Positions 3,873 through 53,022 of a DNA stretch of 64,000 nt are shown here, in pieces. The stretch spans positions 37,795,810 to 37,859,809 of the forward strand of contig NC_052152.1 of the NCBI RefSeq assembly GCF_902713615.1, in the 5' to 3' direction. Source of the stretch: Scyliorhinus canicula. Lineage: Eukaryota. Positions within the stretch are counted from its first letter, which is position 1; the number at the start of each line of letters is the position of its first letter. A program made the translations under genes and the position numbers. Under the pieces are notes generated by a model. It had not been told where the DNA came from. It made no database searches and saw nothing but the letters and a program-made list of their open reading frames with translations.

Positions 3873-5195
3873 ATGTGGCTCCGCGTTACCCATCTTTTGC
3901 AAAGTACTGGTCGGCATTACATACGACAGTTGAAGAGTCGGGTGAAGAATAAAGTGCCTTTGACCAGCTGCCAAATAATGCCACACCACAGGACACTAGT
4001 TTTGACATCATGTGTAAAGAATGAAGAAAAAAAGGTCAACCCTGAACAACTAGATTTGGATATTTGGAAGACTATCATGAGAGAAAATGCAACCGAAGCT
4101 CCCAAACCAGTCCCCTCTGAAGATCTTGAGGACTCATTCCTTGCTGCTACTAGAGAAATGGTTCAAATGTGGCGATTAGCTGGGAAAACTGTGCCAGAGA
4201 ACATAACTGAAGAACAACTGAGCACAGTTCAAGAATTACCTTCTAAATCAGCAAAGAAAAAATATCTTAAGTACCTAGCAATCAAAGAAGGCAAAAAGAA
4301 AGCTACAAAGGAAAAACGAAAATTAAAACAAGAAGGAGCAAAGGATCTTCAAAAGGAAAAGGAAAATGAGGAAGGAATTGCATTAAAGAACACTTATCTT
4401 TTACAATTCTGGCAACGGTCTTTTGACGCATTGTACAATTGGAGAACTGTACAATCAATGATGTTTGGTCAGCCACTGGTATTTGATATGAGCTATGAAA
4501 GCTACATGGCCCATCGAGAGATGGAGAACACTGTCTCTCAGATTCTGGAGTGCGAGGGGTACAACAGAAGATCTTTGGATCCATTCCACTTACATTTCTG
4601 TAACCTCAACCCAGAGGGATCATACCAGAAGGAACTTTTGAAACGTTACGGTGATGCCTGGAATAGACTCTTGATAACCATAACAGAAAAGTCATACGTT
4701 GATATTTTTCCCAAAGACAAGCTTGTATATTTAACTGCAGATTCACCTTATGTATTAAAGACTTTTCAGCATGATAAAATCTACATCATTGGATCAATAG
4801 TTGATAAATCAATTCAGACCGGATTGTCCCATGCAAATGCAAAGCGTTTAAAATTGGCAACTGCACGCCTTCCTTTGGATGAGTATTTGAGGTGGGATAG
4901 CGGTGCAAAAAACCTGACATTAAACCAAATGATCAGCATTTTGTTGACTGTGAAAGAAACCGGTAGTTGGCTAGAAGCTCTCAAGTTTGTTCCAAAAAGG
5001 AAACATGAAGGATTTTTCCCACTTCCAATGGAGCAGAGATACTACAGTCGAACCAGAAATGACGAGAACAAGAAGACAAATATCAATAAACCACAAACCA
5101 AAGCCAGATGGCAAAAATCATCCTTGCGTTTAAATCAACCTGTAGAAAGATCTTCAGATAGTCATAAAAAAAGATGGTGGACGGAGGAACATTGA
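3873..5195 (+). CDS. TRMT10C: tRNA methyltransferase 10 homolog C (mitochondrial RNase P protein 1, MRPP1), 440 aa
   Basis: Intact ORF. Arg-rich, acid-poor N-terminus suggests a mitochondrial presequence. TRMT10C-type motifs LAATREMVQMWR, KKKYLKYL, FGQPLVFDM, DPFHLHFCNL, and SPOUT/TRM10 motifs VYLTADSP, YIIGSIVDK, TARLPLD, LTLNQM, ALKFVPKRK. Confidence 0.97.
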   Translation: MWLRVTHLLQSTGRHYIRQLKSRVKNKVPLTSCQIMPHHRTLVLTSCVKNEEKKVNPEQLDLDIWKTIMRENATEAPKPVPSEDLEDSFLAATREMVQMWRLAGKTVPENITEEQLSTVQELPSKSAKKKYLKYLAIKEGKKKATKEKRKLKQEGAKDLQKEKENEEGIALKNTYLLQFWQRSFDALYNWRTVQSMMFGQPLVFDMSYESYMAHREMENTVSQILECEGYNRRSLDPFHLHFCNLNPEGSYQKELLKRYGDAWNRLLITITEKSYVDIFPKDKLVYLTADSPYVLKTFQHDKIYIIGSIVDKSIQTGLSHANAKRLKLATARLPLDEYLRWDSGAKNLTLNQMISILLTVKETGSWLEALKFVPKRKHEGFFPLPMEQRYYSRTRNDENKKTNINKPQTKARWQKSSLRLNQPVERSSDSHKKRWWTEEH

Positions 5196-17471: not shown

Positions 17472-18613
17472 ATCACTACAACCATATATTCCCAACCTCA
17501 GGCAGAGTTTAGAATGATCATCATTCCACATATTTAGAAAGAGAGGACCAGCAGCTGTAAATTTGGATTATGGTCAGTGTTCACTGCGCTTCTCAACACA
17601 TTAAACAAGACCAGATAAAAAAGGGAGAGCTGGAAGGATCAAATGTTCTCAGGATAAAAGGGGACCACGATACACCACAAATCCATATTCCTCCAGAGCA
17701 TACCCACCCCCAAGGATGAAGAAGAGAAAAAGTTGCTCATTCATATACCATAAAGGTAACAACAAGATATCAACTAAAATACAGGACCCAGCTCAAACCC
17801 ACGCCCTTGTGCACTTGGGAATCAATAATCTGAGGATATTCAAGCACATCAAAAGACTCAGCCTCTCAGGATGTCCCTAATGAGTGCCTTTGAGAAGGGG
17901 CGTCCCAAGCATAAGCGGGCAACAGGAAATCAATCACAGCATCGGATTTGACCAAGTTCAGCACGCTCTGAGACAAAGGAAATAATACCCCCCAAATCAC
18001 CCGTCACATGCCAAGATCCACCACCCAGCTGGCCCTGCACCTCGCTAACTCCACCCAGAGCAGCACACCAACCCACCGACCAAACCATCACTCAGAACAG
18101 CAGATTGCTCACCCACAGGAAGAGAAGAAACTCAACCCCCTCCCCACTCAAGGAAGGAACACTCAAATAAACCCAAGAACATTAGATACAGATTAACACT
18201 GTATGCCCTTGCAAGATGGATATTAGGGGGACAGGGCAATGCTGCCTCAAGAGAGACAAAAACACTGCCTCCCCATGGAAAACCCAACCACAACAAGGAG
18301 GACGATTCAGGAAACCGACATATAAGACTAGCCGGAGGAGAACGCCTAACTCCCTCATCAAGCCTACCTTCAAACCTAAGAAGGGCTCTGTGGTGATCCA
18401 ACCACTGTGTATATGTGTGCTTGCAGTAGGGGGATGTATGGCCGTACCTGTATTACAGGTTTCTCCGGTAAGCCCCTGCCGGCTAGCTCCGCCCACAGGG
18501 AGCTGTATAAATATTCATAAGTTTCACTGAGATGCCATTCTACAGCTGCCGCCGGAGGAATAGCATCTCACTGTAATAAAGCCTCGCTTGTACTTCACTC
18601 GAGTCTTTGTGTA

Positions 18614-18907
18614 TGTGGTGAATGTCACTTAGTAATTCACACTGTATTTACCAATACTATTGTAAGTGCAGTAGCGTTATCCGACCACTAAGGGAGTAGC
18701 TCTGGGAATGCTCAGGAGTTTGTACAGGGCTCCACCCTTGGCTCCGACCAGGACTCCTCCCCCTAGACTGCTGTATAAATAACCGTGTCCAGAGCCAGCC
18801 TGAGTTCATCGAGAGTTCAACGGGTAACAGGCTGGCTCTGAAGTAAGTAGATTAAAACCACTGTTCATATCTGAAAGCACGTGTCTCGTGAATTGATGGT
18901 TCCATCA
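18614..18907 (+). mobile_element. Solo LTR nested in the 5' LTR of element A
   Basis: TG...CA, 294 bp, flanked by gtgta/gtgga. Absent from the 3' LTR. TATAAAT 18774, ATTAAA 18851. Homologous to 37263-37568. Confidence 0.9.
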
Positions 18908-18958
18908 GTGGACAATTGTTAGCGCCAGAATTTGTTACAGTGAGATTTTCCTTACACC

Positions 18959-21900
18959 ATGGACATCAGGATCAAACCTGACCGCCTGCAGCTGGATCCG
19001 CAGTTGCCCAATGCCAGGAAAGACTTTGTTCACTGGCTTTCAGTTTTCGAGGCCTACATCTCTTCAGCGGACCCTCCACCTTTGAAGGCTCAAAAACGAC
19101 AGCTTCTTTACTCAAGACTCAGCTCCAGCGTGTTTCCGCTAATTCGAGACGCGCCTGACTACGCCCGGGCCATGAAACTGCTCAAAGACAACTACGCACA
19201 GTCGACGAACACCCTGTTTGCGAGACATCTACTCTCTACTCGCGTCCAACAGCCGGGTGAGTCAATTGAGGACTTTTGGAGGGCCCTTATACCTCTAGTA
19301 TGAGACTGCGACTGCCAGGCTCTCACGGCCACAGAACATTCCGACTTACTCATGCGGGATGCCTTTGTTATGGGTATTGCATCGGACCCCATCCAGCAAC
19401 GATTGCTGGAAGGGGCCGCTCTCAATCTCGCGGCTACAAAGACTCTGGCGCTATCAATGACGGCCGCCTCCCGTAGTGCCTGATCCTACCCCGTTAGCCA
19501 CTCAGCCCACCCGTCCAACCCCCCGTGGACCCCGCAAACGGCTTCCCGGCCCACCCGTCCTTCCCCTCGTGGACCCCGCAACTGACCCCCCAGCAGCCAC
19601 CCCCGTGCACTACGCCTGCGATGCTCGCCGTACCGCGCACCCTGGGGGTTCCCACTGCTACTTCTGTGGTCAGCAGAAGCACCCCGCCAGCACTGCCCGG
19701 CCTGCACCGCGACCTGCAAAGCTTGTGGCAAGAAAGGCCACTTTGCAGCGGGGTGCCAGTCCCGGACGGTTGCCGCTATCGCGCCCGAATCCCCCTCCTC
19801 ACCTCAGCTGATCGCACAATGGGCCCTACCGTCCGCTGCCCCCGATCCCACGTGCAATCAGTCGGCGCCGCCATCTTTTGCCGCCCCCGCCATGTGTGCA
19901 CCATGGGCGCCGCCATCTTCATCCTTCGCCTCCATGTGCGTTCCATGGGCGCCGCCATCTTGTCCGCCGCCATTTTCTTCCTCACAGGTACTCCAGACGC
20001 CGCCATTTTGTCCTCCCCTCGAGACGGGACCCGGGTCGCTGCCGCTACTCGTCGGACTCGTCAGACTCGTCGGCCGATCGCCCGCTACTCGCCTCCGTGA
20101 TGCTCGACCAGTCCCGTCCTCGCAACTTGGCACCCTCTTCCACGACGGTGCTCGTCAACGGCCACGTGACCTCCTGCCTCATCGACTCTGGAAGCACCAA
20201 GAGCTTCATTCACCCCGACACGGTAAGGCGCTACTCCCTTGCGGTCCATCCCGCCAACCGGCAGATCTCATTAGCCTCCGGTTCCCACTCTGTCCCGATC
20301 CGGGGCTTCTGCCTGGTTAAACTCACTGGACAGGACGTGGAAATCGACCATTTCCACCTGTACATTCTCCCCAACCTCTGCGCGCCACTCTTACTAGGCC
20401 TGGATTTTCAATGCAACCTCCAGATCCTCACCCTCAAATTCGGTGGACCACTACCTCCCCTCACCGTTTGCGGCCTCGCAACCCTCAAGGTTGAGCCTCC
20501 CTCCCTCTTTGCCAATCTGACCGCAGATTGCAAGCCCGTCGCCACCAGGAGCAGATGGTACAGCACCCAGGACAAGACCTTCATCAGGTCTGAAGTCCAG
20601 CGGCTGCTTCGGGAGGGTATTATCAAGGCCAGCAACAGTCCCTGGCAAGCCCAGGTGGTAGTGGTTAAAACTGGGGAGAAACACAGGATGGTCGTGGACT
20701 ACACTCAGACCATCAATCGGTACACGCAGCTCGACGCGTACCCCCTCCCGCGCATTTCTGATGTGGTCAGTCAGATTGCACAGTACCGGGTCTTCTCTAC
20801 AATTGACCAGAAATCCGCTTACCACCAGCTCCCCATTCGTAAATCGGACCGTCCATACACTGCCTTCGAGGCGGACGGTCGCCTGTATCAATTTCTTAGG
20901 GTTCCCTTCAGCGTCACTAACGGGGTATCGGTATTTCAACGAGAAATGGACCGAATGGTTGACCGGTACGAACTGCGGGCCACGTTTCCGTACTTAGACA
21001 ACGTCACCATCTGTGGCCATGACCAGCAGGACCATGACGCCAACCTTGCTAGATTTCTCCACACCGCATCTCTCCTTAACCTCACATATAACAAGGAGAA
21101 GTGTGTGTTCCGCACAGGCCGTTTGGCCATCCTCGGCTACGTTGTCCAAAACGGACTACTGGGGCCTGATCCCGACCGCATGCGCCCCCTCATGGAGCTT
21201 CCCCTCCCCCACTGCCTCAAGGCTCTCAAACTATGCCTGGGGTTCTTTTCTTACTATGCCCTGTGGGTCCCACAATACGCGGACAATGCCCGCCCACTAA
21301 TCCAGTCCACACAATTTACCCTCACAGCCGAGGCACAACAGGCCTTCACTCAAATTCGCTCTGACATAGCCAGGGCCGGGATGCACGCAGTAGATGAGAC
21401 ACTGCCCTTCCAAGTAGAGAGCGACGCTTCAGATGTCGCCCTTGCCGCCCCGCTGAACCTGGCAGGCAGACCCATGGCATTCTTTTCCCGCACCCTCCAT
21501 GCCTCCGAAATTCGACATTCGTCTGTTGAAAAGGAGGCCCAGGCAATTGTTGAAGCGGTGCGGCACTGGAGGCATTACCTGACCGGCAGGGGATTCACTC
21601 TCCTCACTAACCAACAGTCGGTAGCCTTCATGTTCAACAACACGCAGCGGGGCAAGATCAAAAATGATAAACTCTTGCGGTGGGGGATCGAGCTCTCCAC
21701 CTATAATTACAAGATTGTGTATCGCCCTGGCAAGCTCAACGAGCCCCCAGACGCCCTCTCCTGAGATACATGTGCCAGCGCACAAGTGAACCAGCTCCGT
21801 GCCTTGCACGAGAGCCTTTGCCATCCGGGGGTCACTCGTTTGTACCACCTAATCAAAACCCGTAATCTTCCTTACTCCGTCGATGAAGTACGGACAGTCA

Positions 21901-22935: not shown

Positions 22936-23684
22936 CCGGATTGCCTGATGGACTCTTGGTTTTCTTTTGTTTTGCCCTTTTGTAAATAGATCACTTTATG
23001 TATTGTAGTTCCACATCATCCCCGCCGGACTCATTGTTTACAGGGGGTGAATGTGTTGATCCAACTACTGCAGTAGGGGGATGTATGGCCGTACCTGTAT
23101 TACAGGTTTCTCCGGTAAGCCCCTGCCGGCTCCGCCCACAGGGAGCTGTATAAATATTCGTAAGTTTCACTGAGATGCCATTCTACAGCTGCTGCAGGAG
23201 GAATAGCATCTCACTGTAATAAAGCCTCTCTTGTGCTTCACTCGAGTCTTTGTGTACAATTGTTAGCGCCACAGGCTCCGACAACATAGAGACATGGCAT
23301 ACAGACTTTCACTTCAACAAATCGAATAGGAATAAACCGAGCACACCCAGGTATGCGGTGCCACTTATTTCCCCTACCCCAGTAGCTCGAAAAATAACAA
23401 TCACAACGAATCCGAAGGAACTCAGTCCTTTCCAGGATACACAATTTCCACAAGCCTTCGAAGGAGATAAGTATGGATTCTCAAAATTCAAAGCAACAAC
23501 AAAAAGAAAAGCATACATTTAGCTTTAATTGCTGATTATCCTTAATCCAAGTGACGACTAATCCAACCGGACCACCAACCACCACACCAATCATCCACCC
23601 ATCACTCCATCGCGGCTCCACTAATATCCCTTCTCATGCGTGTAAAGATTACAACAGATAAAAAAGGATAAAGCTGTATTTAGC

Positions 23685-25378: not shown

Positions 25379-26767
25379 AACTAGAGTGTTAATGTTGAAC
25401 CTTGGCAAGCAGGCAGTCTTCATAGAAACGTAGAATAACTACAGTGCAGAAGGAGGCCATTCGGCTCATCGAAAGGAGCAGGGAGGGGGGAGGTTTCAGG
25501 CCTCACAAAAGGAAAGGGTCGGGGGCGCATTCAGACCTCAGGAAAGGGGTAGGGTGGGGTTCGGACTTCAGGAAAGGAGCAGGGAGAGGGTGGTTTAGGC
25601 CTCAAACGGTTGATGAGTGTGTGAGGATGAGTTTGTGTGTGTGTGTGTGTGAGGATAAGACATAGGAGCAGAAATAGCCACTTGGCCCAACAAGTCTGCT
25701 CCGCCATTCAATCATGGCTGATATTTTCTAATCCCCATTCTCCTGCCTTCTCCCCATAACCCCAATCCCCTTATTAATCAAGAACCTATCCAGCTCTGTC
25801 TTAAAGAAACTCAGTGATTTGGCCCCACAGCCTTCTGCGGCAAAGAGTTCCACAGATTCACCACTCTCTGGCTGAAAAAATTCCTCCTCATCTGTCTTTT
25901 AAAGGATCGTCCCTTCAGTCTGAGGTTGTGCCCTCTGGTTCAAGTTTTTCCTGCTCGTGGAAACATCCTCTCCAAGTCCACTCTATCCAGACCTCGCAGC
26001 ATCCTGTAAGTTTCAATAAGATCCCCCCTCATCCTCCTAAACTCCAACGTGTACAGACCCAGAGTCCTCAACCCCATCTAATATAATAAGTTCTTCATTC
26101 CTCCTCTTGACCCTTTCCAAGGCCAGCACATCCTTCCTTAAATCCGGGCCCAAAACTGCTCACAATACTCCAAATGGGTCTGACCAGAGCCTTATACAGC
26201 CGTTTAGAAGTACACCCATGCTCTTGTATTCTAGCCCTCTCTACATGAATGCTAACATTGCATTTACCTTCCTAACTGCTGACTGAACCTGCATGTTAAC
26301 CTTAGTGAAAATCTTGAACAAGGATTCCTAAGTCCCTTTGTGCTTCTAGTTTCCTAAGCATTTCCCCATTTAGAAAAGTCTATGCCTCCATTCCTCCTTC
26401 CAAAGTGCAAAACCTCAGACTTTCCCACATTGTATTCCATCTGCCACTAATGTGACCATCAATTCACTCGAGACACGAGAGGAAGTAAACTGTGGCTTTA
26501 ATAGACTTACAACTGAGCCTGCCTGCGACCAGAAGAACTGAGGGCAGACTCACAAGACCGCACTTTATACTTCCGGTAGCGGGAGGGGCCATGGGCGGAG
26601 CCAAGGGTGGAGCCCTGTACAAGCTCCTTATCTCCCCCTGTGGGCAGAGCCGCGCAGCGGCTCACAGACAGAACCCACAAGGACACAATGATACATAGTG
26701 TGAATTAAGCATTATACATTCACCCCCTGTAAAAAAATCAAGTCCGGCGGGGGTGACGGGTCTACAT

Positions 26768-29700
26768 GATTGAGCTGGTCCGGTGGCCGTGTCATCCGCT
26801 GGGATCAGCGGAGCACTGGGGTTGTAGCCGCTTTGGATGGCTGTGTGCTGACGGGCGGTATGGATTTGAGGGTGGACTCCGGGGGGTGGTTCGTTCAGAG
26901 CTTCGTTCCTGACCGGTGCGACAGGCGAAGGGGGGCGTAGGAAACCTGTAGGTGTGGGGGCGCAAGGTGTGGGGGGTCGGGTGGGGTGTAGTGTGAGGGG
27001 TACCTCGGCGGTGGTGATGGTGGTGGATTCTGCAGGCGCCAGGTCCCGGAGGGAAATGGTGTCCTGACGGCCGTCGGGGTGTTCTATAAAGGCGTAGTGT
27101 GGGTTTGAGTGTAGCAGTAGTACCCTTTCTACTAGTGGGTCCGTTTTATGTGTCCGGACATGCTTCTGGAGGAGAACCGGACCCGGTGTCCTCAACCAAG
27201 ATGGGAGCGAAGCCCCCATGGTAGTGCCCCTAGGGAAAACAAATAATCGATCATGAGGGGTCTGATTAGTGGCCGTACACAGGATGGACCTAATTGGATG
27301 GAGGGCGTCGGGGAGGACCTCCTGCCAGTGGGAGGTCGGGAGATTCCTGGACCGGAGGGTCAGTAGGATGGTCTTCCTGACCGTTGCGTTCTCCCTCTCC
27401 ACCTGCCCGTTCCCCCTGGGGTTATAGCTGGTAGTCCTGCTCGAGGCGATGCCCTTGTCGAGCAGGTACTGACGCAGCTCGTCGCTCATGAAGGACGAAC
27501 CTCTGTCGCTGTGGACGTAGCTGGGGAAACCAAACAGGGTGAAGACACTGTGCAGGGCTCTGATGACTGTATGGGAGGTCATATCGGGGCATGGGATAGC
27601 AAACGGAAAACGGGAGAATTTGTCTGTGACGTTGAGGAAGTACACATTTCGATTGGTCGAGGGGAGGGGCCCTTTGAAATCGATGCTCAGGCATTCAAAG
27701 GGCCGGGAAGCCTTTACCAGGTGGGCCTTGTCTGGTCTACAGATGTGCGGTTTACACTCCGCGCAGATCGGGCAATCCCTGGTGTTGGCTTTTACCTCCT
27801 CGGTGGAGAAAGGCAGATTTCGGGCTTTGATGTAGTGGGCGGGCCGGGTGACCCCCGGGTGGCAGAGGTCATTGTGGTTGGCCTGTAATCGGTCGTCTTG
27901 CGCGCTGGCGCATGTGCCGTGGGACAGAGCATCTGGGGGCTCATTGAGCTTCCCCGGCCGATATATGATGTCATAATTATAGGTGGAGAGTTTGATCCTC
28001 CACCTCAAGATTTTATCATTTTTTATTTTGCCCCATTGTGAGTTGTCGAACATGAAGGCAACCGATCTCTGGTCGGTGATGAGGGTGAACCTCCTACCTG
28101 CGAGGTAGTGCCTCCAGTGCCATACGGCTTCCACAATGGCTTGAGCTTCTTTTTCGACTGAGGAGTGTCGAAGTTCTGAAGCGGAGAGGGTTCGGGAGAA
28201 GAAAGCTACTGGTCTCCCTGCCTGGTTCAGAGTGGCAGCAAGAGCGACCTCAGAGGCGTCGCTCTCCACCTGAAAGGGGACGGATTCATCCACCGCCCGC
28301 ATGGCGGCTTTGGCGATGTCCTCCTTGATGCAGTTGAAGGCCTGGCGGGCCTCGGCTGACAGTGGGAAGAGTGTGGTCTTAAATAGTGGGCGGGCTTTGT
28401 CCGCATACTGCGGGACCCACTGCGTGTAATAGGAGGAAAATCCAAGGCACCTCTTGAGGGCCCTGGAACAATGAGGGAGAGGGACACATGTCCGCGTCAG
28501 GCCCCAGAACCCCGTTTTCCATGACATAGCCGAGGATGGCTAGTCTGGTTGTGCAGAAAAAGCATTTCTCCTTATTGTATGTGAGATTGAGTTTCTGGGC
28601 GGTTTGGAGAAATCAGTGGAGGTTGGCGTCGTGGTCCTGCTGGTCATGGCCGCAGATGGATATCCAAATACGGAAACGTGGCCCGCAGCCCGTACTGGTC
28701 CACCATTCGGTCCATTGCTCGTTGGAACACCGAAACCCCATTTGTGACGCCAAAGGGAACCCGGAGGAAATGGCAGAGGCGACCATCTGCCTCGAACGCC
28801 GTGTAGTGGCGGTCCTCTGGGTGGATTGGGAGCTGGTGGTATGCAGACTTCAGGGGCGGCATTCTCCCCTACCCGGCGTGACGGAGGGTGCCGGCGTAGG
28901 GGAGTAGTGCCAACCACTCAGGGGTCGGGCCTCCCCAAAGGTGGGGAATTCTTCCCACCTTTGGGGGCCAGCCCCACGCCGGAGCGGTTTGCACCAGAAG
29001 ACTGGCGCTAAAAGTCGGCGCCCCCGGCAGCGGGGCTGGCCGAAAGGCTTTCGCCAGTCGGCGCATGCGCCGACAGTGACGTCAGCAGCTGCTGGCTGCT
29101 GACATCACTGCCGGCGCATGCGTGATGTGGGGTTCTCTTCCGCTTCCTGCCATGGCGGAGGCCGTGGCGGACACGGAGGATAATAGTGCACCCAGGGCAT
29201 TGGCCCGGAGTCTGAGCGGGCCAGGCCACCGTGGGGGCACCCCCCAGGGTTCGATCGCCCCCCGCCCCCCCAGGACCCCGGGGGCCTGCTCGCGCCGCTG
29301 ATCCCGCCGTTCCAGAGGTGGTTTAAACCTCGGCGGCGGGAGAGGCCTCCCAGCGGCGGGACTTCGGCCCAATCGGGCCGGAGAATCACCGCAGGGGCCT
29401 CTCCGATCGGAGTGGCGAGATTCTGCTGCCGCCACTTCCCAGGTGGCGGAGATTCTCTGCCACGGCGGGGGCAGGATTTTAGGCGGCCCCAGGCGATTCT
29501 CCGACCCTGCTGGGGGTCGGAGAATTTCGCCCCAGATCCACCGTGGAGAAGATGCGGTACTGGGCGATCTGGTTGACCATGTCTGCAATTCGGGGAGGGG
29601 GGTACGCATCAAGGTGCGTGAACCGGTTAATGGTCTGGCTGTAATCAACCGCCATCCGGAACTTTTCCCCGGTCTTGACGGCCACCACCTGAGCTCTCCA

Positions 29701-31383
29701 GGGGCCATTACTGGCCTCTATGACTCCCTCACCAAGGAGCCGCTGGACTTCGGCTCTGATAAATACCCTGTCCTGCAGGCTATACCACCTGCTGCGAGTG
29801 GCTATGGGTTTGCAGTTAGCAGTGAGATTAGTGAAGAGTGGAGGGGGGTCGATGTTTAGAGTCGCTAAGCTGCATATAGTGAGAGGGGGTAGGGGTCCAC
29901 CGAAGCTGAGTGTGAGGCTTCTAAGATTGTATTGAAAATCGAGCCCAAGTAGGAGGGGGACGCAGAGGTCTGGGAGTACTTACAGCTGGAAATTAGAGTA
30001 GCTGGCGCCCTGTATTGTTAATGTCGCAACGGTGCGCCCTTGTATTTGAACCGAGTGCGAACCCGAGGCGAGGGAGATCGTTTGCCGTGCTGGGAAGATA
30101 GGGAGCGAACAGCATCTTACCAGGTCTGGATGAACGAAGCTCTCGGTGCTCCCGGAGTCGAAGAGGCACGGTGTCTTGTATCCGTTGACCTGAACAGACA
30201 TCATTGAGCTCCTGATGTGCTCTGGCCGCGACTGGTCCAAAGTGACTGCGTTGAGTTGCGGGTAGTCGGTGGCTTGATCAGCAGTGCTGGAGTGGCCCTG
30301 TGATGACTGTCCGCGGATGTCGTAGTCGTCGAGATGAACATCGGGTGATGGCCAAGATGGCGCCACCCGTTGATTGCACGTGGCGGGCGATGAACAAGAT
30401 TGCGTCCAAGATGGCGGTCCCCGTTGATCGCACGTGGCGGGCGGTGAGGAAGATGGCGCCCAAGATGGCGGCCCCCATGACTCGCACATGGCCGGCCGCG
30501 TGGGGGAGGATTACCAAGATGGCGGCCCCCATGAGTCGCACATGTCGGGCAGAGTCGGCAGACACGCTGCAACATTGCGGGGTCTGCGGGCCTGCGAGTT
30601 GGGGGAGCAATTGCTCTGGACAGCTGGAGAGTTAGAGGGTTTAGATCTAGACAAGCATACCTTAGCAAAATGTCCTTTTCGACCGCAGCTGCTGCAGGTC
30701 GCGTTGCGGGCCGGACAGTGCTGCCGTGGGTGTTGGGGCTGACCGCAGAAATGGTACGATGGCACTCCATAGTGGGCGGGTGGCCGCGCGGCGCAGGCCT
30801 GGAGCAGTCTCTGGTCGGGGGTCCACGATGGGGTCGCGTGGTCAGCGGGGAACAAGTTCAAACTTTGAAACGCAACCTCCAGTGAGGTTGCTAGCATTAC
30901 AGTGTCTTCCAAGTTCTGGGCCCCTTTTTCGAGGAGACACTGGCGCACGTAGTTAGACCGGACCCCTGCAACATACACATCACGGACACCGAGTTCCATA
31001 TGCTGGGAGGCAGTTACAGCCTGAAAGTTACATTCCCGTGCAAGAGCTATTAGATCGCGCAGGTAGTCCTCTAGCGACTCTGCGGGGCGCTGGCGGCGGG
31101 TAGTGAAAACATGCCGTGCGTAAACTTCATTTACAGGCCGCATGTATAGTCGGTCGAGTATAGCGAGGGCTTCGGTGTACGAGTCGGTACTATCGAGTTG
31201 CGTAGAGATGCGATGGCTCACCCGTGCGTGCAGGAGACTGGGTTTCTGCTCTTCAGTAGTAGCGGAGGTAGTCGACGCAGCCAGGTAGGCCTTGAAGCAC
31301 CGAAGCCAGTGTAGAAAGATTTCCTTCGCTTCTGCGGCCTGCAGGTCGAGTTCTAGTTGATCAGGTTTGAGGGCTGATTCCAT
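26768..31383 (-). pseudogene. gag-pol of element B (disrupted)
   Basis: Gag MESALKPDQLELD (open 290 aa) with CCHC knuckles. Protease LFDSGST. RT broken by a MITE. RH-IN open over ~600 aa (ESDASE, DFKGP, HSDRGS, NGQVER). Confidence 0.93.
28854..29532. mobile_element. PIF/Harbinger-like MITE
   Basis: TIR GGGCGGCATTCTCC / GGAGAATTTCGCCC, 3-bp TSD CAG. Removing it restores RT FSTVDLKSAYHQ. Confidence 0.85.
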
Positions 31384-32197
31384 AGTGGTTTTTTAAGTCT
31401 ATTAAATTGATGTGACCATCAATTCACTCGAGACATGAGAGGAAGTAAACTGTGGCTTTAATAGACTTACAACTGAGCCTGCCTGCGACCAGAAGAACTG
31501 AGGGCAGAATCACAAGACCGCAGCGCTTTATACTTCCGGTAGTGGGAGGGGCCATGGGCAGAGCCAAGGGTGGAGCCCTGTACAAGCTCCTCATCTCCCC
31601 CTGTGGGCAGAGCCGTGCAACAGCTCACAGACAGAGCCCACAAGGATACATAGTGTGAATTATACATTATACATTCACCACAGCCACTTCTTTGCCCACT
31701 CTCCTAGCCTGCCCAAGCCATTCTGCAGCCTCCCTGCTTCCTCAATATTCCCTGTCTCTTTGCATATCTTTGCATCATCTGCAAACTTAGCAACAATGCC
31801 CTCAGTTACATCTTCCAGATCGTCAATGTACATTGTGAAAAGTTGTGGTTCCAGCACCGACCCCTGAGGCTCACCACTAGTCACCGCTGCCATCTTGAAA
31901 AAGACTTCTTGATGCCCACTCTCAGCCTTTTGCCAGTCAGCCAATCCTCTATCCATGCTAGTATCTTACCCTTAACACCGTGGGCTCTTAACTTATTTAA
32001 CAGCCTTCTATGCGGCACCTTGTCAAAGGCCTTCTGGAAATATAAATGAATCACGTCCACTGGTTCCCCTTTGTCTCACTTGCTTGTTACCTCCTCAAAT
32101 CACACTAACAGATTTGTCAGACATGACCTCCCCTTGACGAAGCCATGCGGTCTCAGTCCTATTTTATCATGCACTTCCAAGTACTCCACAATCTCAT

Positions 32198-35794: not shown

Positions 35795-36514
35795 GGGCGA
35801 GATTCTCCCAAAACGGGAGAAATCGTAAAGCTGCCGTCAAACCCGGGCGGGTTTTACGGCAGCGCGCCCCTTCCCGACCGGGGACCGATTCTGGTCCCCG
35901 GTCGGGGCTAGCAGCCCGACGCCGTAGGCTCCGGCAAGACGGGCTTAACGAAAATCGTTAAGCCCGCTTGCCGGAGTTAGCGCTGGCTGACGCGTCATAT
36001 GACGTCAGCCGCGCATGCGCAGTTTGGAAGACTCCAACCCGCGCATGCGCGGGTGACGTCATCGCGTTTTTGCGCGAAACTCGCGCATGCGCGGGCCGGG
36101 TTGCCCCTCAGCCGCCCCGCGAATGGATACTGCGGGGCGGCGGAAGGACAAGTAGTGCGCGGGCATTGGGCCCGCTGCCCGCGATCGGTGCCCACCGATC
36201 GCGGGCCCATGGCACCCTTGGTACGGCCGTGCCAATCGGTGCCATGGTTATTAATAGCGAGTTTGTGACGCCGGTTTTACGAACGGCAAGACCAGGTGTG
36301 TTTGCCGTTCGTAAAACGGCGGAAAGGGCTGGGACTTCGGCCCATCTAACAGCTGAGAATCGCTGCCGGACCGTAAAAAAACGGCGGCAGCGATTCGGGT
36401 CGGGACTTCGGCGGGGGGGGGGGGGGGGGGGAGAATAGCGGGAGGGCGGCAAAATGTCGGGAAGGCCCTCCCGCTATTCTCCCACCCGTCGTGGGGGGGC
36501 GGAGAATTTCGCCC
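35795..36514. mobile_element. PIF/Harbinger-like MITE
   Basis: TIR GGGCGAGATTCTCC / GGAGAATTTCGCCC, 3-bp TSD AAT, CpG-rich body. Confidence 0.85.
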
Positions 36515-37262: not shown

Positions 37263-37568
37263 TGTTGGAACCAACAATTCTACGGACACGTGCTTGTAGG
37301 ATTAGAATAACGGTTTTAATATACTTACAACAGAGCCAGCCTGTTAGCCGTTGAACTTTCGGTGAACTGGCCGGCTGACCCTGTGGCACTGATCTTTATA
37401 CAGCAGCTCCCAGGGGAGGAGTCCTGGGCAGAGCCAAGGGAGAAGCCCCGTACAACTCTCAAGCATTCCCAGAGCTACTCCCCCTGGAGGTCAGGTAGTG
37501 CAACTGCACTTACAATATAGACACATGTATATACAGGTTATAATCTGGTGTGAATCACATTCACTACA
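37263..37568 (-). mobile_element. Solo LTR (same family as 18614-18907)
   Basis: TG...CA, perfect TSD AGATG (37258-37262 / 37569-37573). Confidence 0.9.
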
Positions 37569-42929: not shown

Positions 42930-45790
42930 ATGTGGCCTCCCGAAATGCCCGTGCGTACGTCCCCGACCGCGCAGCAGCCCTTGGGCAGCGTGAACGCCCC
43001 CCGTAGCTGACCTTCGATGCATCCCCATCCCCCCCACAAGCTTGTGCTGCGCGACTACCAGGCAGCCCGGGGGGGCCCCGCTGCTATTTTTGTGGGCAAG
43101 CCAAGCACCCTCGGCAGCGCTGTCCAGCCCGCTCCTCCACCTGCAAAGGGTGCGGCAAGAAGGGCCATTTCGTGGCGGTATGCCAGGCCCGGTTGGTCGC
43201 CACAGTCTCCGGGGGCGAACCGGGACCGCCACCCCCAAACCTCTCCACGAAGCCATGGCGGCCAGCGGGCGCCGTCATCTTCTTTTTCCAGAGCCATGTG
43301 CGAGCCCCAGGCGCCGCCATCTTGTTCCCCAGGGACCACGTGTGACGGATGAGCGCCGCCATCTTGCCCACCCCCAGCCATGTGCGACCAGTGGGCGCCG
43401 CCACCTGGCTGGAGTCTCAGGACCCCGATTCGGATAACCACACATCGCCGCAGAAACCTCCAGCTGTTGCCACGACTTGCCTCGGTGACCCTGGACCCGT
43501 TTCGGCTCACGAACGCTCTCGACCGCGACGACGACCGTACTCATCAATGCGCACAAATCAACCTGCCTATGATCGACTCGGGAGGACAGAGAGCATTCAT
43601 ACACCCCAACATGTAAGGCGTGTTCTCTTCCCATCCACCCAGTTAATCAGAAAATCTCCCTGGCCTCGGGTCTCACTCTGTAGAGATCAAAGGGTTCTGC
43701 GTAGCAAACCTCACAGTCAGGGAAGGAATTAAAAAATTTCCGCCTCTATGTCCTCCCTCACCTCTGCGCTGCCACGCTCCTTGGGTTAGATTCCAATGTA
43801 ACTCTCCATTAGCCAGACCGGCGCCGCCCGATTTCGTCGTGAAGTTGGATTCTTGCCCTCGTGCCGAACGTGATTTCGGCGCGGAGCTGCGGAGAATCCA
43901 GCCTTAGTTTATTTACAATAACTATTATATACATCACAAGGTAGATCCCAACTGGGTCTGCCTTGTTGGTGCCTAACTGTCCGGCTTACATAGCATACCC
44001 CGACGGCCGTCAAGACACAGTCTCCCACAGGGACCTTGCACCAGCGGGTTCCCCACACCCCCCCCCCCCTCTGCCCCAGCGCCACCCTCCCTTCCCCCGG
44101 CGCACCCCACCACAGCCCCCGTTCCAGGACAATCCGTCCTCCCATTGCCCACACCCGGGGATGAAGAGGATTTCGACACGCTCCCGGAGTCTCCGAAGAC
44201 CAAGCCGCCGCCGGAGTTGCCACCAACACTAGGGCGCTCTCTACGACAGATTAAGGCACCGGACCACCTGAATTTATAATTTTAACTGTACTTTTAAAAC
44301 ACAATTTCCTGTATATAGTTCTCCACCACCCCCGCCGGACTCATTTTTAACAGGGGGGTGAATGTGGTAGTCAACTCAGATGTATATATTGTATATAGAG
44401 GATGTTGTTATAGGTGCTTTACGGTAAGGCCCTTGTACTACAGGTGCGGGGGTAGATCCTGCCTGCTGGTTCCGCCCAGTAGGCGGAGTATAAATATGTG
44501 TGCTCCCCGTACAGCAGCCATTTTGTTAGCTGCTTAGGAAGCCACACAATCTCAGTGTAATAAAGCCTCGATTACATCCTACTCTCGTCTTTGCGTAATT
44601 GATAGTGCATCAGAAGCTCAAGCCATTGTGGAAGCTGTGTGACATTGGAGGCATTACCTGGCCAGCAGGCGATTCACTCTCCTCACTGACCAGTGGTTGG
44701 TTGCCTTCATGTTTAGTAACACACAGCGGGGCAAGATTAAGAACGACAAGATCTTGAGGTGGAGGATCGAAGTCTCCACCTATAACTACGAGATCTTGTA
44801 TCGCCCTGGGAAGCTCAATGAGCTACCAGATGCCCTGTCCCATGGTACATGTGCCAACGCACAAGTAGACCGACTTTGGGCTCTCCACAACGACCACTGG
44901 CACCCGGGGGTCACCCGGTTCTTCCACTTTATCAAGGCCCGCAACCTGCCTTATTCCATCGAGGAGGTCAGAACCGCGACCAGGGACTGCCAGGTCTGTG
45001 CGGAGTGCAAACCGTACTTCTATCGGCCGGACCGAGCACATCTGGTGAAGGCCTCCCGCCCCTTTGAGCGCCTCAGCATCGATTTCAAAGGGCCCCTCCC
45101 CTCCACTGACCGCAACATGTACTTCCTCAACATCATTGATGAGTACTCCCGTTTCCCTTTGCCATCCATGCCTGTTGTGACTTCTGCCACTGTCATCAAG
45201 GCCCTACACAGGCTCTTCACCTTGTTCGGTTTCCCCACCTACATCCACAGCTATCGGGGATCCTCATTAATGAGTGATGAGCTGCGTCAGTTCCTGCTCA
45301 GCATAGGCATCACCTGAGCAGGACGACCAGCTACAATCCCCGGGGAAACGGACAGATGGAGAGGGAGAACGCGACAGTCTGGAAGGTCATCCTGCTGGCC
45401 CTTCGGTCTAGGAGTCTCCCAGTCTCCCGCTGGCAGGAGGTCCCCCCGATGCGCTCCACTCCAACGGGTCGCTCCTGTGCACTGCTACCAATGAGACCCC
45501 TCACGAACGTGTGTTTGCCTTCCCTAGGAAGTTCACCACGGGGTCTCACTCCCAACCTGACAGTTCCTGGCCCGTCCTCCTCCGGAAGCATGTGAGGAGC
45601 CATAAATCAGACCCCCTCGTCGAAAAAGTCCTCCTCAATGCGAACCCAGTACGCCTACGTGGCACACTATGGCGGGCGGCAGGGCCACAGTCTCCCTCCG
45701 GGACCTGGCACCAGCTGGTTCCCCATCCACCATTACCTCCACCCCCCGACCTGGCACCGTCTCCTCCCCCTCCGGTCGCCACCCCGCCCG
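42930..45790 (+). mobile_element. Mosaic of gypsy (A/B group) fragments: gag knuckle/protease, IN end + PPT + LTR (44363-44612), then RH-IN of another copy
   Basis: CYFCGQAKH..C..CGKKGH; YPDGRQDTVS; acaggggggtgaa|TG...CA; EAQAIVEA...DFKGP...NGQMERE. Confidence 0.85.
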
Positions 45791-46104: not shown

Positions 46105-46380
46105 TGATGCGACCATCGATTCACTCAGAGACACGAGTTGAAGTAAACTGTGGCTGTAATCGCTTACAACTGAGCCTGCTGCGACTATACTGAACTGAGG
46201 GCGGACTCGCAGGACCGCAGCACTTATACTTACCTGCTGGGGGCGGAGCCAAGGACGGAGCCCTGTACATTGCTCCTCATCTCCCCTGAGGGCAGAGCCG
46301 TGCAACGGCTCACAGATGAAGGCCCACAGGGACCACAGTAATGTACAGTGTGAATTTATAGTGGTTACACATTCACCACA
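46105..46380 (-). mobile_element. Solo LTR related to element B LTR
   Basis: TG...CA; close similarity to 31408-31682. Confidence 0.85.
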
Positions 46381-48242: not shown

Positions 48243-50287
48243 TAAGACCATAAGAGATAGGAGCAGAATTAGGCCACTCGGCCCATCGAGTCTGCTCCGC
48301 CATTCAATCATGGCTGATATTTTTGTCATCCCCATTCTCCTGCCTTCTCCCCATAACCCCTGATCCTCTTATTAATCAAGAACCTATCAATCTCTGTCTT
48401 ATAGACACTCAGTAATTTGGACTCCACAGCTTTCTGTGGCAAAGAGTTCCACAGATTCACCACCCTCTGGCTGAAGAAATTCCTCCTCATCTCAGTTTTA
48501 AAGGATTGTTCCTTTAGTCTGAGATTGTGTCCTCAGCTTCTAGCTTTTCCTACAAGTGGAAACATCCTTGTCTACTCTATCCAGGCCTGGCAGTATCCTG
48601 TAACATCCAATAAGATTCCCCCTCCTCCTTCTAAATTCCAACGAGTACAAACCCAGAGACCTCAACCGTTCCTCATACGACAAGCTCTTTATTCCGGGGA
48701 TCATTCTTGTGAACCTCCTCTGGACCCTTTCCTAAGCCAGCACAGCCTTCCTTAGATACGGGGCCCAAAACTGCTCACATGACTCCAAATGGGGTCTGAC
48801 AAGAGCCTTATATAGCCTCAGAAGTACATCCCTGGTCTTGTATTTTAACCCTCTCAATATGAATGCAAACATTGCATTTGCCTTCCTAATTGCCGACTGA
48901 ACCTGCATGTTAACCTTAAGAGAACCGTGAACAAGAACTCCCACATTCCTTTGTGCTTCTGATTTCCCTCATTTCGAAAATAGTCTATTCCTCCATTTCT
49001 CCTTCCAAAGTTCATAACCTCACACTTTTCCACATTGTATTCCTTCTGCCACTTCTTTGCCCACTCTCCTAGCCTGTCCAAGTCCTTCTGCAGCCTGCCT
49101 TCTTCCTCAATATTACTGCTACAGATCTTTGTATCATCTGCAAACTTAGCAACAGTGCCTTCTTCCAGATCATTAATGTATATTGTGAAAAGTTGTGGTC
49201 CCAGCACCGACTCGAGGCACACTACTAGTCATCAGATGCCATCCTGGAAAAGACCCCTTGATCCCCACTCTCTGCCTTCTGCCAGTCAACCAATCCTCTA
49301 TCCATGCCAGGATCTTACCCTTAACACCAGGGCTCTTAACCTATTTAGCAGTCTCCTATGCAGCACCTTGTCAAAGGCCTTCTGAAAATCTAAATAAATA
49401 ACGTCCACTGGTTCTCTTTTGTCTAACTTCCTTGTTACGTCCTCAAAGAACTCTAACAGATTTGTCAGACATGAGCTCCCCTTGATGAACCGTGCTGACT
49501 CAGTCCTATTTTATCATGCACTGCCAAGTATCCTGTGATCTCATCTTTAATAATGGACTCCAAAATCTTACCAATGACTGAAGTCAGGCTAACCAGCCTA
49601 TAATCTCCCGTCTTCTGCCTACCTCCCTTCTTAAACAGCGGTGTTATATTAGCCACTTTCCAGATTTCTGGGACCCTTCCTGCCTCCAGTGATTCCTGAA
49701 AGATCATCACCATCAATTGGACTCGAGACACGATGAAGATCCAAACTGTGGCTTTAATCAGCTAGTTGTTAGCCCGGTGGTCGACTACAGAGAAAGGCCG
49801 ACCGCCGGGAAACCTGGGTACTTATACCCCGCCTCCGAGGCGGGGTCTACTTGCCTCTCGACCAATTGGTGAGCGGTCACATGACTAGTTCCAGCCAATC
49901 GGACGAGAGGCACATGACCAGCCAGAGCCAATGGGGAACCAATGCTCTGCACCAATGGCAGTGCTCACATTCATACCACCACACCAATGCATCCATAATC
50001 TTCTCAGCTATCTCTTTTAGAATCCTGGGGTGTAGTCCATCTGGTCCAGGTGATTTATCCACCTTCAGACTTTTCAGTTTCCCCAGAACCTTCTCCTTAG
50101 TGATGGTCACTGAACTCACCTCTACCCCAATTCTCCTAGAGCTCTGGCATCCCACTGTTGTGTTCCACCATGAAGACTGATGTAAAATAACTATTCAGTT
50201 CGTCTGCCATTTCTTTGTTTCTTCTCCAGCTACATTTTCCAGTGGTCCAATGTCTATTTTTGTGTCTCTATTACCTTTTACACATTG
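48243..50287 (-). mobile_element. CR1 (HER1-like) LINE, 5'-truncated
   Basis: SVLGPQLFTIYINDL, KFADDTK, LYKALVRPHLE; same family as 25655-34152. Confidence 0.9.
49708..49983 (-). mobile_element. Solo LTR (A/B group) in CR1, one terminus eroded
   Basis: Starts TGTGGTGG on -; multiple CCAAT boxes, TATAA, ATTAAAGCCACAGTTT shared with the element B LTR. CR1 is continuous across it. Confidence 0.75.
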
Positions 50288-50639
50288 AAACCTTCCTTCT
50301 AAAGGCACATTTACCCCCTGATTACTGCAATGAAGATCACAGCAGCTTCCTATGACAAAGTTCTGGACATAACAACCCATTCTCAGGCTTATCCTCTGTT
50401 GCTGTTAAAAACCCTGCGAGGGCTGATGGGTTTTTCTGTGTGAAAATGAACTGATATAGCTTTGAATCGGTACCAATATGGAACGGTGACGTTTCCTTGT
50501 TGATTAATGGTTAGTGTGGTATGTGGAATACTACGTAGATGATTTTCAAATCTTTGTTACTGTTGACTGATAAACAAAACATTCCCAGCCTTCATGATGG
50601 GTTTGTGTGTGTATGTATGTGTTTGCAGAAGGAGGGGCC

Positions 50640-50720
50640 AGGCAGTGGCTTGGAGCCGGAAGTGACGATCCTCCCCTCCCAGAGTGCTGTTGGCGGTTTG
50701 AAGTTGGTTCAAAATGGCGG
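50640..50720 (+). promoter_or_regulatory. PCNP core promoter: ETS-CRE composite and YY1 site over the start codon
   Basis: CCGGAAGTGACG at 50656-50667; CAAAATGGCGG at 50710-50720; CpG-rich region continues to ~50980. Confidence 0.7.
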
Positions 50721-50759
50721 AGGAAACGCGCTCAGAGCTGGAGAAACTGCAAGACGAAG
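50714..50759 (+). CDS. PCNP: PEST proteolytic signal-containing nuclear protein, exon 1
   Basis: ATG in strong context, MAEETRSELEKLQDE, phase-1 donor AAG|GTGCCG matching the phase of exon 2. Confidence 0.7.
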
Positions 50760-53022
50760 GTGCCGCTTCATAATCTTTTAAGTACCCACGGCGCGGCAGG
50801 AATTGAGAATCCCGATATTGTCAATACTAGCGAAGGGGCGAAACTTAACAAAGCAGAAAGTGCGATTCCGCCCGGCTCCTCGGAGGAGGCTGTGCAGCCA
50901 GTGCGGGATCAGTAGGCAGGCAGGCGGGCGGGCCTCGAGTCTCATTCCTACCACCCCCTCCCCGCTGTACACAGGCTCCGAGCTATGGTGCATTTCTGTT
51001 AGACGAGGTTAATCAAATTTACTGCATTACCTTTAGGCACTTTGAAGCTCAAATTTCATTTTTAACCGATCGACTTTCTAGGGTAATTTTTTTCGCACTA
51101 ACGTGCTGCATTTTGCGTGAACCTGAAAACAATGTAATATTTGATTTAATACAGTAATTTAGACTTTGTAAACCATTCAGCCGGACACTTGGAATAATTC
51201 ATGTTGCAAGTATGACTGCAGATCTAGTTTACCCTTTTCTTTATTTAATTTTTTTCCTTAAATTGCTGTGAAATGTGGGAGCCAGCTCCTTATATTTTGT
51301 CGGATAATGTGACATAGCCCATTGCCAATCTGATTTTGACCCAGTGTATATTTATTTGTAGTTTCGGTTAAAATCGAGAGAAGCCTAAATGTGGTGTAGG
51401 ATTTAGGACAAATAAGTTTTGTTGCCAATTCTGTTTTTTTTATAATTGATCTAATATTGCCAGCAAATATCTTGCTTTGAAATTAGATTTTTATTGATTC
51501 ATGATTTTTTAAACAGTATCTGATATTTAAACCAAGTAACTGAATGGAAGCAATCAAGAATAATGCATGGCAGTTATAACAAAAGCACACTTTGTGATGC
51601 CTGTAACAATCTGTAATCTTAACTGTTGTACTTGACATCTTTTTAGGAATGTTTAGTTATTTCATAATGTAGATAATGACTGGTAACTTATCACAATGCC
51701 ATGTGAAAACAGTGTTGGATACATTCAGTGATTCAGAGTTTTGGCAACACAAAATCCAGTAGGACCAATACAGTACCAGTTTTGATTGATCAGTAACCAT
51801 TGAATTAGACCATCCTCATTGCTTTGTAAGACAACTGGCTATAAGAGTATAACTAAATTACAGTAGCTCACCTGATGGATGTAAATCACATTAGCAGACC
51901 ACTTTGAAATTTAGAGCATCTACTTGATTTGAGTAATAAATTCTCAAATGTTAGTTGTCGGATTATTCTCTAAATAGTGTTTTTTTTTGTGTGTGTGTGT
52001 AGTCATATAAGTAATACAGTCTCTGCTATTGTATTAATTTCTGACTGGCTAGCTATTAGGTGAACAGAAATATATTTTGGCTCTGGCTGATTCCCTGTCA
52101 GGAATGCAGAGGCTGTTTATTAATTGGTATATGCTTTTGGAACAAAAGCTGATAGCTAGTGGATGTTAAAAAATTGAACTTGAGAAGTGTTTCCTCAAAT
52201 TATCCAGGAGGAACTTATTTTTTGAAAACTAGCAAGTCTGAGTTCAACTAAAGTAATGATTTCTCAGAGAAACAAATTTGATTCTGTGGTAAATGATCTA
52301 TACATGTGAAAACAATTTAATTTTTAAAAAGTTTTTGGCCATTCTTTGTCATTCTGAATTTTGTCTTCAGAATTATCGTTAGTTGAATCAGATTTCAACT
52401 GACTATCCAGATTGAAGAATATCTCTATTATTTGCCCACTGGAACTACGTGTATTCTGTTGGATGTTACTACCCATTAGCAAGACATGAAAATAAAGAAT
52501 AAAATCTCAGAGTAGAAACTGAAATTACTGGAACTGTAGCACTTGAGAGTAATTGATTATAACTTGACTACGTGAATCACTCTGAAATGATGTGATGGTG
52601 GCACCCCTTTTGGTCATCAGTTACTTTAGGATATTGCCATTTTGGTGCTGTGTATCCCCCCACTGGTTTATAATGTAACACCTGAAAGTCTACAATTTGT
52701 ACAGTCATTGGTGAATGTTTCCTCAGTGTGGACCTTTAGTCTTATCAAAATCTGTACTGTTTGGTCCTGTGAATTTTCTTTGGGGTCCAAGAAACAGGAA
52801 GCACGTGGAATTCAATCCTACCCTGATCTGAAATATAGAGTCCATCCATCTATGAAATGGTTTCTCAGTGCCTGCATCTACTGTATCTGACAAACAGTGG
52901 AAGAGACTACTGGTTCAGTCAGTGCAACCCACAGAAGCTCCCTATACTTAATGAGGTTGCTGCCTCCACCAAAGTGCTCGATAAAGTATCTCATCTTGGT
53001 AAAGTTGTTTCGACTCCACCAG

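Follow-up and report, generated by a model that had tools for sequence, protein, structure and literature searches.

A leader–LTR helix shared by a clade of chromodomain-less animal Ty3/gypsy elements and its probable part in self-priming

In element B, a retrotransposon on the minus strand of the window (the whole 64,000-nt stretch of DNA analysed), the leader between the 5′ LTR and gag was found to contain a perfect complement of a segment of the LTR. The helix formed by these two arms is a real, clade-wide feature, best read as a variant of a known self-priming mechanism in a separate animal clade. Judged from the sequences, the element probably primes reverse transcription with its own RNA (about three chances in four), the LTR arm pairing with the leader's primer-binding site (PBS) and being cut at TAAA^GCC. 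The support consisted of the position of the arm, the absence of a tRNA PBS, a fixed 1-nt offset, covariation of the two arms and their exclusivity with tRNA-type PBSs.

The leader arm TTTAATAGACTTA (minus strand, 31406-31394) and the LTR arm TAAGTCTATTAAA (minus strand, 31469-31457) were found to form an inverted repeat of 13 perfect base pairs with a loop of 50 nt and with ATTAAA in the LTR arm, as a first-pass annotation of this DNA had claimed. The 5′ LTR was found to end in ..CACATCA at 31408, followed by a lone A at 31407 and then by the leader arm. The whole leader contained 24 nt and the ATG of gag was located at 31383, whereas the ends of the element were set by the 5-bp target-site duplication (TSD) GTGGC (Table 1). 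Both arms have a high AT content, and the 64-kb window contained further perfect inverted repeats of at least 13 bp, but chance pairing of AT-rich sequence is hardly credible, being refuted by three controls: pairing of at least 13 bp with the element B LTR at offsets 0-5 was obtained with 6 of 200,000 leader shuffles, 80 viral loci chosen solely by the motif TAAAGCC..CAATTTAWT paired over 8 bp at most, and swaps of leaders between families (below) fell far short of the observed pairing. A control with all 24-mers of the window was set aside because self-matches inflate it.

The PBS just past the 5′ LTR is the start point of reverse transcription in LTR elements (PMC5341516), and the leader arm of element B was found to occupy the slot where it belongs, a point missed by the first-pass annotation and the reason why self-priming is taken as the main explanation. 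A tRNA-type PBS was sought in the 24-nt leader and no TGG was found. Element B thereby corresponds to the operational definition of a self-primer given in PMC6317226, namely an LTR complement of at least 10 bp situated 0-5 nt past the LTR in an element with no tRNA PBS.

Table 1. Positions of the parts of elements A and B and of the remaining LTRs of the window
Feature	Position	Strand	Remarks
Element B 5′ LTR (TG...CA), 275 nt	31408..31682	-	TSD GTGGC; 92% identity to 3′ LTR
TATA box of element B 5′ LTR	31527..31532	-	TATA + Inr-like A layout
Inr-like TCAGTTC	31495..31501	-	transcription start predicted at A31499
LTR arm, predicted self-primer (+31..+43)	31457..31469	-	ends in hexamer ATTAAA (31462-31457)
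Predicted cut TAAA^GCC	between 31457 and 31456	-	3′ end of LTR arm
Remaining R + U5, with predicted stem directly after arm	31408..31456	-	stem here in 18/21 families
Lone nucleotide left unpaired between the end of the LTR and the leader arm	31407	-	same offset at 33/33 junctions and in element A
Leader arm, putative primer-binding site, no TGG tRNA complement	31394..31406	-	tRNA-type PBS in this slot in outgroup elements
gag of element B, 290 aa to stop, two CCHC-type knuckles	30511..31383	-	
Broken pol of element B (protease-RT-RNase H-integrase), no chromodomain match	26731..30510	-	
~670-nt insertion interrupting element B RT	about 28854-29530	-	
Element B 3′ LTR, after purine tract	26448..26727	-	identical arm sequence; end CATTA
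Element A 5′ LTR	18389..18929	+	split by solo LTR 18614-18907 (TSD GTGTA/GTGGA)
Element A LTR arm	18565-18580	+	AATAAA at 18575
Element A leader, 29 nt	18930..18958	+	arm 18931-18946 pairs 16 bp, one G:U
Element A 3′ LTR	23052..23273	+	TSD GGCTC
Solo LTR, same group	18614..18907	+	TATA-Inr-hexamer-U5 layout
Solo LTR, same group	37263..37568	-	TSD CATCT
3′ LTR of truncated element, same group	44363..44612	+	
Solo LTR near family B	46105..46380	-	decayed hexamer ATTACA
Solo LTR, same group	49708..49982	-	approximate ends

Element A, on the opposite strand, was found to contain a corresponding helix with a loop of 51 nt, a value taken from its 3′ LTR because the solo LTR splits the 5′ one. The arms of the two elements were identical at 9 of 13 positions, the 4 remaining positions differing on both sides of the helix, and the two pol regions shared 70-73% nucleotide identity. 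The first-pass annotation had regarded element B as an independent replicate of element A, with equal loop length and largely different paired sequences; none of the three descriptions held, as the loops differed by one nucleotide, most arm positions were the same and the tree placed both elements in one clade. Its statement that the 1-nt offset from the LTR edge is common to A and B was correct, and the same offset was found at all 33 junctions of related elements. Leaders for the LTRs at 18614, 37263, 44363, 46105-46380 and 49708 were sought in the 64-kb window and none matching was found. In the minus-strand stretch 26719-26731 of element B, the 3′ LTR start was found to read GGGGGTGAATGT, against TGTGGTGAATGT at the 5′ LTR start, and one 9-nt unit has likely been lost there between the purine tract and the start of the 3′ LTR.

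The pol of element B was found to contain the domain order protease-RT-RNase H-integrase that characterises Ty3/gypsy elements (Metaviridae), its best match in the PDB was the Ty3 RT (E 5e-46), and both A and B contained the TG...CA LTRs, purine tract and TSD of that family. A chromodomain was sought in the integrase of element B, of six full-length relatives and of the young copy L008, and no match was found; element B is a chromodomain-less Ty3/gypsy element. The closest named proteins were from Scyliorhinus, Mustelus, Hypanus and Mobula, followed by those of sea cucumber, crinoid, corals, spider, nematode and sea slug, and the window is accordingly likely to be shark DNA. Relatives with two LTRs were mostly 4.0-4.4 kb long with LTRs of mostly 180-300 bp, and the four longest ORFs contained 1,213-1,238 aa. 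The gag of the helix elements was found to be related to that of tRNA-primed Mag/SURL-like elements, their RT standing apart. Cigr-1 of Ciona has an LTR of about 245 bp and a single ORF of about 1,210 aa in about 4.2 kb, and combines a gag resembling echinoderm Tgr1/SURL with an RT unlike Mag. The helix clade is probably Cigr-1-like, a lead given by the agreement of sizes and gag/RT split in a comparison by description. The Cigr-1 clade is recorded in molluscs and annelids (PMC6238403, PMC8556966), and motif searches of part of the supplementary files of PMC3601003, PMC6238403 and PMC8556966 for clade-naming sequences gave nothing useful. A different identity was suggested by the LTR start TGTGGTG, which is that of CsRN1 (PMC3601003, Table 3). 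This candidate was dropped because the gag here contains two CCHC knuckles, CsRN1 having a gag motif of its own and a tRNA PBS.

Relatives were collected by a locus scan with the pol alignment, which was chosen because the gag alignment was too variable, and the best 80 of 269 confirmed metagenome loci were used together with 9 genome-bin loci, the latter evidently host DNA. A search of viral contigs for relatives gave none, the motif scan there returning only the chance matches that served as the control set. Among the gag matches beginning near the N-terminus of the profile (41 gag starts in 40 loci), 33 were found to be preceded by the same junction, i.e. CA, one nucleotide and a complement of the LTR arm, with the arm usually ending in TAAA. 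The junction was absent from the remaining 8 gag starts, comprising three on contigs ending less than 100 nt upstream (L011, L013, L034) and five with no recognisable LTR junction (L035, L040, L053b, L062, L077). A TGG directly past the LTR was absent at all 33 junctions, that of L019 included. The pairing was perfect over at least 12 bp in 25 of the 33 loci, and of the 16 loci in which two LTRs were present, 12 contained a 5-bp TSD that independently confirmed the LTR end. The loops of the relatives varied from 21 to 68 nt while the 1-nt offset was constant, and it is therefore only the offset that is conserved. Bins filed as bacteria (L081-L089, G001-G003) were found to contain animal-type LTR retrotransposons, with 44, 60 and 2 gag matches; these are host DNA contamination.

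A cut at 85% RT-RNase H identity gave 21 families, A and B included, with 39-79% identity between families. When each family was represented by its best-pairing copy, positions 1-13 were found to contain 267 Watson-Crick pairs of 273, compared with 190 ± 6.5 (maximum 219) in 20,000 leader swaps, and positions 5-13 contained 185 of 189, compared with 111 (maximum 139). The arm ended in AAA in 20 of 21 families, followed by GCC or ACC in 17, and a stem opened right past the arm in 18 of 21 families, compared with 10.6 in shuffles (none of 2000 as high). A canonical AATAAA or ATTAAA was found inside the arm in 17 families and was missing from the arm in the other 4. The first-pass annotation had predicted a leader made of one nucleotide plus the reverse complement of a hexamer-ending arm. 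The complementarity was borne out in 19 further families, but the hexamer proved not to be obligatory.

In the proposed mechanism, the arm in the 5′ R would pair with the PBS in the leader, a cut after TAAA at the 3′ end of the arm would supply the 3′-OH, and minus-strand DNA would be started beside the LTR end. The cut would, by analogy with Tf1, be made by the RT/RNase H. With the transcription start predicted to lie about 30 nt ahead of the arm, the primer would be a capped fragment of about 43 nt with its last 13 nt paired. First-strand transfer would use the part of R that remains between the cut and the poly(A) site, and the primer would be copied back into the PBS during plus-strand synthesis, keeping the arms matched while families diverge. 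Such copying would let the arms covary with no need for a second, separate mutation. For Tf1, the copied PBS is reported to be kept in about half of the cDNA (PMC11042837).

The covariation had been put forward in the first-pass annotation as compensatory change that argues for selection on structure and against chance. The pairing is indeed conserved and beyond chance, as the swaps showed, but selection is not required for it, because a plus strand that copies the primer into the PBS would give the same pattern. In the young copy L008, one change was found in the arm of both LTRs together with the matching change in the leader, whereas four siblings (97.8-98.8% identical) retained the old pair; the estimated chance of an independent matching change at this divergence is about 0.4% per site (46 differences in 4,205 nt). 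The double-LTR and leader change of L008 fits primer copying. L004 contained an arm change in both LTRs with an unchanged leader, i.e. a broken pair, which is compatible with self-priming as its expected first step and is by itself no fit. Among variants in the reads, common differences were found at 31399 and 31400 in the leader arm and at 31465 in the LTR arm, with no partner change among the rows listed (40 of 199).

The letters of the PBS differ between families, and one tRNA therefore cannot explain them. Priming by a host RNA, either a tRNA half or another small RNA, would make the helix a by-product, and half-tRNA priming does exist in copia lineages (PMC6317226). The PBS letters were nevertheless found to track the LTR of each family, even within one family in the case of L008, which makes a host-RNA primer very improbable.

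An outgroup set was obtained by a gag-profile search of three bins, which gave 30 loci, 3 of them re-found helix elements. A TGG-type PBS right past the LTR, with no junction helix, was found in 16 of the 30 loci by reading (8 by a strict pattern); these outgroup elements we take to be Mag/SURL (C-clade). The RT-RNase H tree contained 36 pieces and was made by a quick method with a midpoint root and with unnamed elements as outgroups; in it, 15 helix rows, L241 and the long-branched L247 were located on one side of a branch with an SH-aLRT of 100, apart from L255 and L264, the two rows in which a tRNA-type PBS is known. The helix elements thus differed from Mag/SURL both in the missing TGG PBS and in the position of the RT. 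Across the elements examined, the helix and the tRNA-type PBS are, as far as their sequences tell, mutually exclusive. The family of L247 was found to contain a weaker match of 9 bp at the same offset, which stops just before AATAAA and was perfect in 1 of 3 aged copies. A 9-bp leader-LTR match stopping just before AATAAA was found in the divergent family L270-L275 (in G001 and G002), and in one of its elements the leader agrees more closely with the variant in the 3′ LTR than with the 5′ LTR.

In the window LTR copies, an Inr-like A was found 29-33 nt past the TATA box in 8 of 9 (one by a widened pattern) and the hexamer 67-80 nt past it. By this layout, we infer that the RNA of element B would start at 31499 and carry the arm at +31 to +43. 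Public oligo-dT RNA reads were found to span the LTR-leader-gag junction with a strand bias of 13 vs 0.17 (X23) and 24.7 vs 1 (X24), which fits sense transcription on condition that these are ordinary stranded libraries. The reads over the junction of element B contained neither a sharp start nor a sharp end, so that the start site and the poly(A) site are given here as predicted positions, and a search of the loose read ends listed for a poly(A) tail gave none. An inverted repeat around the predicted start site was observed in most window LTRs (18389, 18614, 23052, 26727, 37568, 44363, 49982), with z of -1.6 to -4.1 in 7 of 9; its 5′ strand is located in U3, which would restrict its folding as RNA to the transcript's 3′ end. 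In element A, this repeat overlaps the 5′ part of the arm.

The arm lies within R and hence at both ends of the RNA, it is terminated by an A-run close to the poly(A) site and its predicted position is not 5′-terminal, all of which would suit self-priming from the 3′ copy of R. In that case the RNA 3′ end, trimmed as far as the duplex or processed at TAAA, would prime on the PBS of a circularised RNA or of a partner RNA, and an internal cut near the 5′ end would not be required. This route is unlikely. It would presumably occupy the 3′ R needed in first-strand transfer, the predicted local 5′ fold of element B gave the helix pair probabilities of 0.83-1.0, and the U3-R hairpin, for which the 3′ end is the sole possible place, includes the 5′ portion of the element A arm; no precedent was found in the parts of the literature surveyed. 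Self-priming from the 5′ arm remains the preferred reading.

The same helix would, where the arm holds the hexamer (17 of the 21 families), also mask the 5′ LTR's poly(A) signal, and only there because the leader sequence is required. In the predicted fold of element B, the probability of the hexamer being unpaired was at most 0.04 with the leader and at least 0.95 without it. Occlusion of AWUAAA at the 5′ LTR could thus be the selected function, with another primer in use; it would need no cleavage, and for HIV-1 it is generally assumed that structure represses the 5′ poly(A) site (PMC5961354). As the sole explanation it is quite unlikely, since it leaves the element no primer site and does not require the invariant 1-nt offset. 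The hexamer was, moreover, missing from the arm in four of 21 families, a canonical one was located in the loop and not in the arm in L005 and L007, a second hexamer was found in the loop of L083/L085, the weaker match of L270-L275 stops short of AATAAA, and the hexamer of element A was predicted to be paired in the 3′ LTR context too, unlike the clean 5′/3′ contrast predicted for element B. Masking of the 5′ signal is, from the modelled folds, plausible as a second role of the helix and not as its primary function. That one helix does two jobs in a widespread animal Gypsy clade (corals to sharks), silencing the 5′ poly(A) site and forming the tip of an internal self-primer cut after AWUAAA, with the arms matched by plus-strand copying, is proposed tentatively and rated at somewhat under an even chance.

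To our knowledge, self-priming is proven for yeast Tf1 only. In Tf1 and Tf2 of S. pombe, in Tj1 and in Tf1/sushi elements, the PBS past the 5′ LTR is likewise complementary to the LTR and not to a tRNA, a cut is needed to free the primer and a U5 stem is located inside the loop, as is predicted here (PMC10085805, PMC4600332, PMC5341516). The helix clade differs from the Tf1/sushi chromoviruses in having no chromodomain, in its hosts (sharks, rays and many invertebrates, compared with fission yeast for Tf1) and in its primer, which is predicted to be internal (+31..+43) and to end at the poly(A) hexamer, whereas that of Tf1 is at the 5′ end of the RNA. A side duplex like that of the Tf1 'pretzel' was sought between the region 3′ of the PBS and the loop, and the mean was -4.33 kcal/mol, compared with -4.67 kcal/mol in swaps (405 of 500 swaps as strong); the inner stem is present in the helix clade but the three-duplex pretzel of Tf1 was not found. 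The helix clade probably operates in the manner of Tf1, yet by its missing chromodomain and pretzel duplex and its probably internal primer it does not belong to Tf1/sushi. In plants, Tcn1 (gypsy) and TAR/Houba/Osr-1 (copia) are predicted self-primers on like evidence, an LTR complement of at least 10 bp at the PBS, but these belong to other lineages and hosts, and the part of PMC6317226 consulted ties none of them to a poly(A) signal.

A likeness to a retroviral structure was also found. HIV-1 uses a tRNA primer, and its polyA hairpin is local to the LTR. In that hairpin a helix close to the 5′ end contains the AAUAAA of R (PMC5961354), as is predicted here; the partner strand here is the PBS outside the LTR, and the pairing is therefore 5′-specific, unlike the HIV-1 hairpin. 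The literature surveyed, which included few subscription papers, assigned self-priming in animals only to Tf1/sushi chromoviruses, and in the parts covered it yielded no self-priming in a non-chromovirus animal Gypsy clade and no self-primer ending at a poly(A) signal. A second animal Gypsy clade of this kind, one with no chromodomain, would imply that self-priming either replaced tRNA priming independently or is an ancient common condition, which bears on whether hairpin priming preceded tRNA priming (PMC3601003). The geometry gives exact, testable cut positions, and it suggests a simple explanation for why transcription would not stop at the 5′ LTR of an element whose R contains the poly(A) signal. 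Screens based on tRNA PBSs will label such elements PBS-less, and covariation of the present kind calls for caution, as it may reflect template copying and not selection.

Several other features were observed in the window. A tandem array with a 20-nt period and about 21 in-register copies was found at 457-1042, followed at 3873-5195 (+) by an uninterrupted ORF of 440 aa with a tRNA (guanine-N1)-methyltransferase domain (PF01746), which we take to be likely a host gene of TRMT10C type. The GC-rich stretch 50613-50950 resembled a host gene's first exon with its promoter, and a Pfam search of it gave no match. Two insertions, each GC-rich, about 700 nt long and with numerous inverted repeats inside, about 28854-29530 in the RT of element B and 35797-36506, were found to have just a 42-nt match in common. 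In the gag-protease interval of three related elements, repeats of 42-54 nt were found at 19821-20010 (+), 30410-30530 (-) and 43267-43414 (+), each containing CCGCCATNTT, presumably a YY1-type motif.
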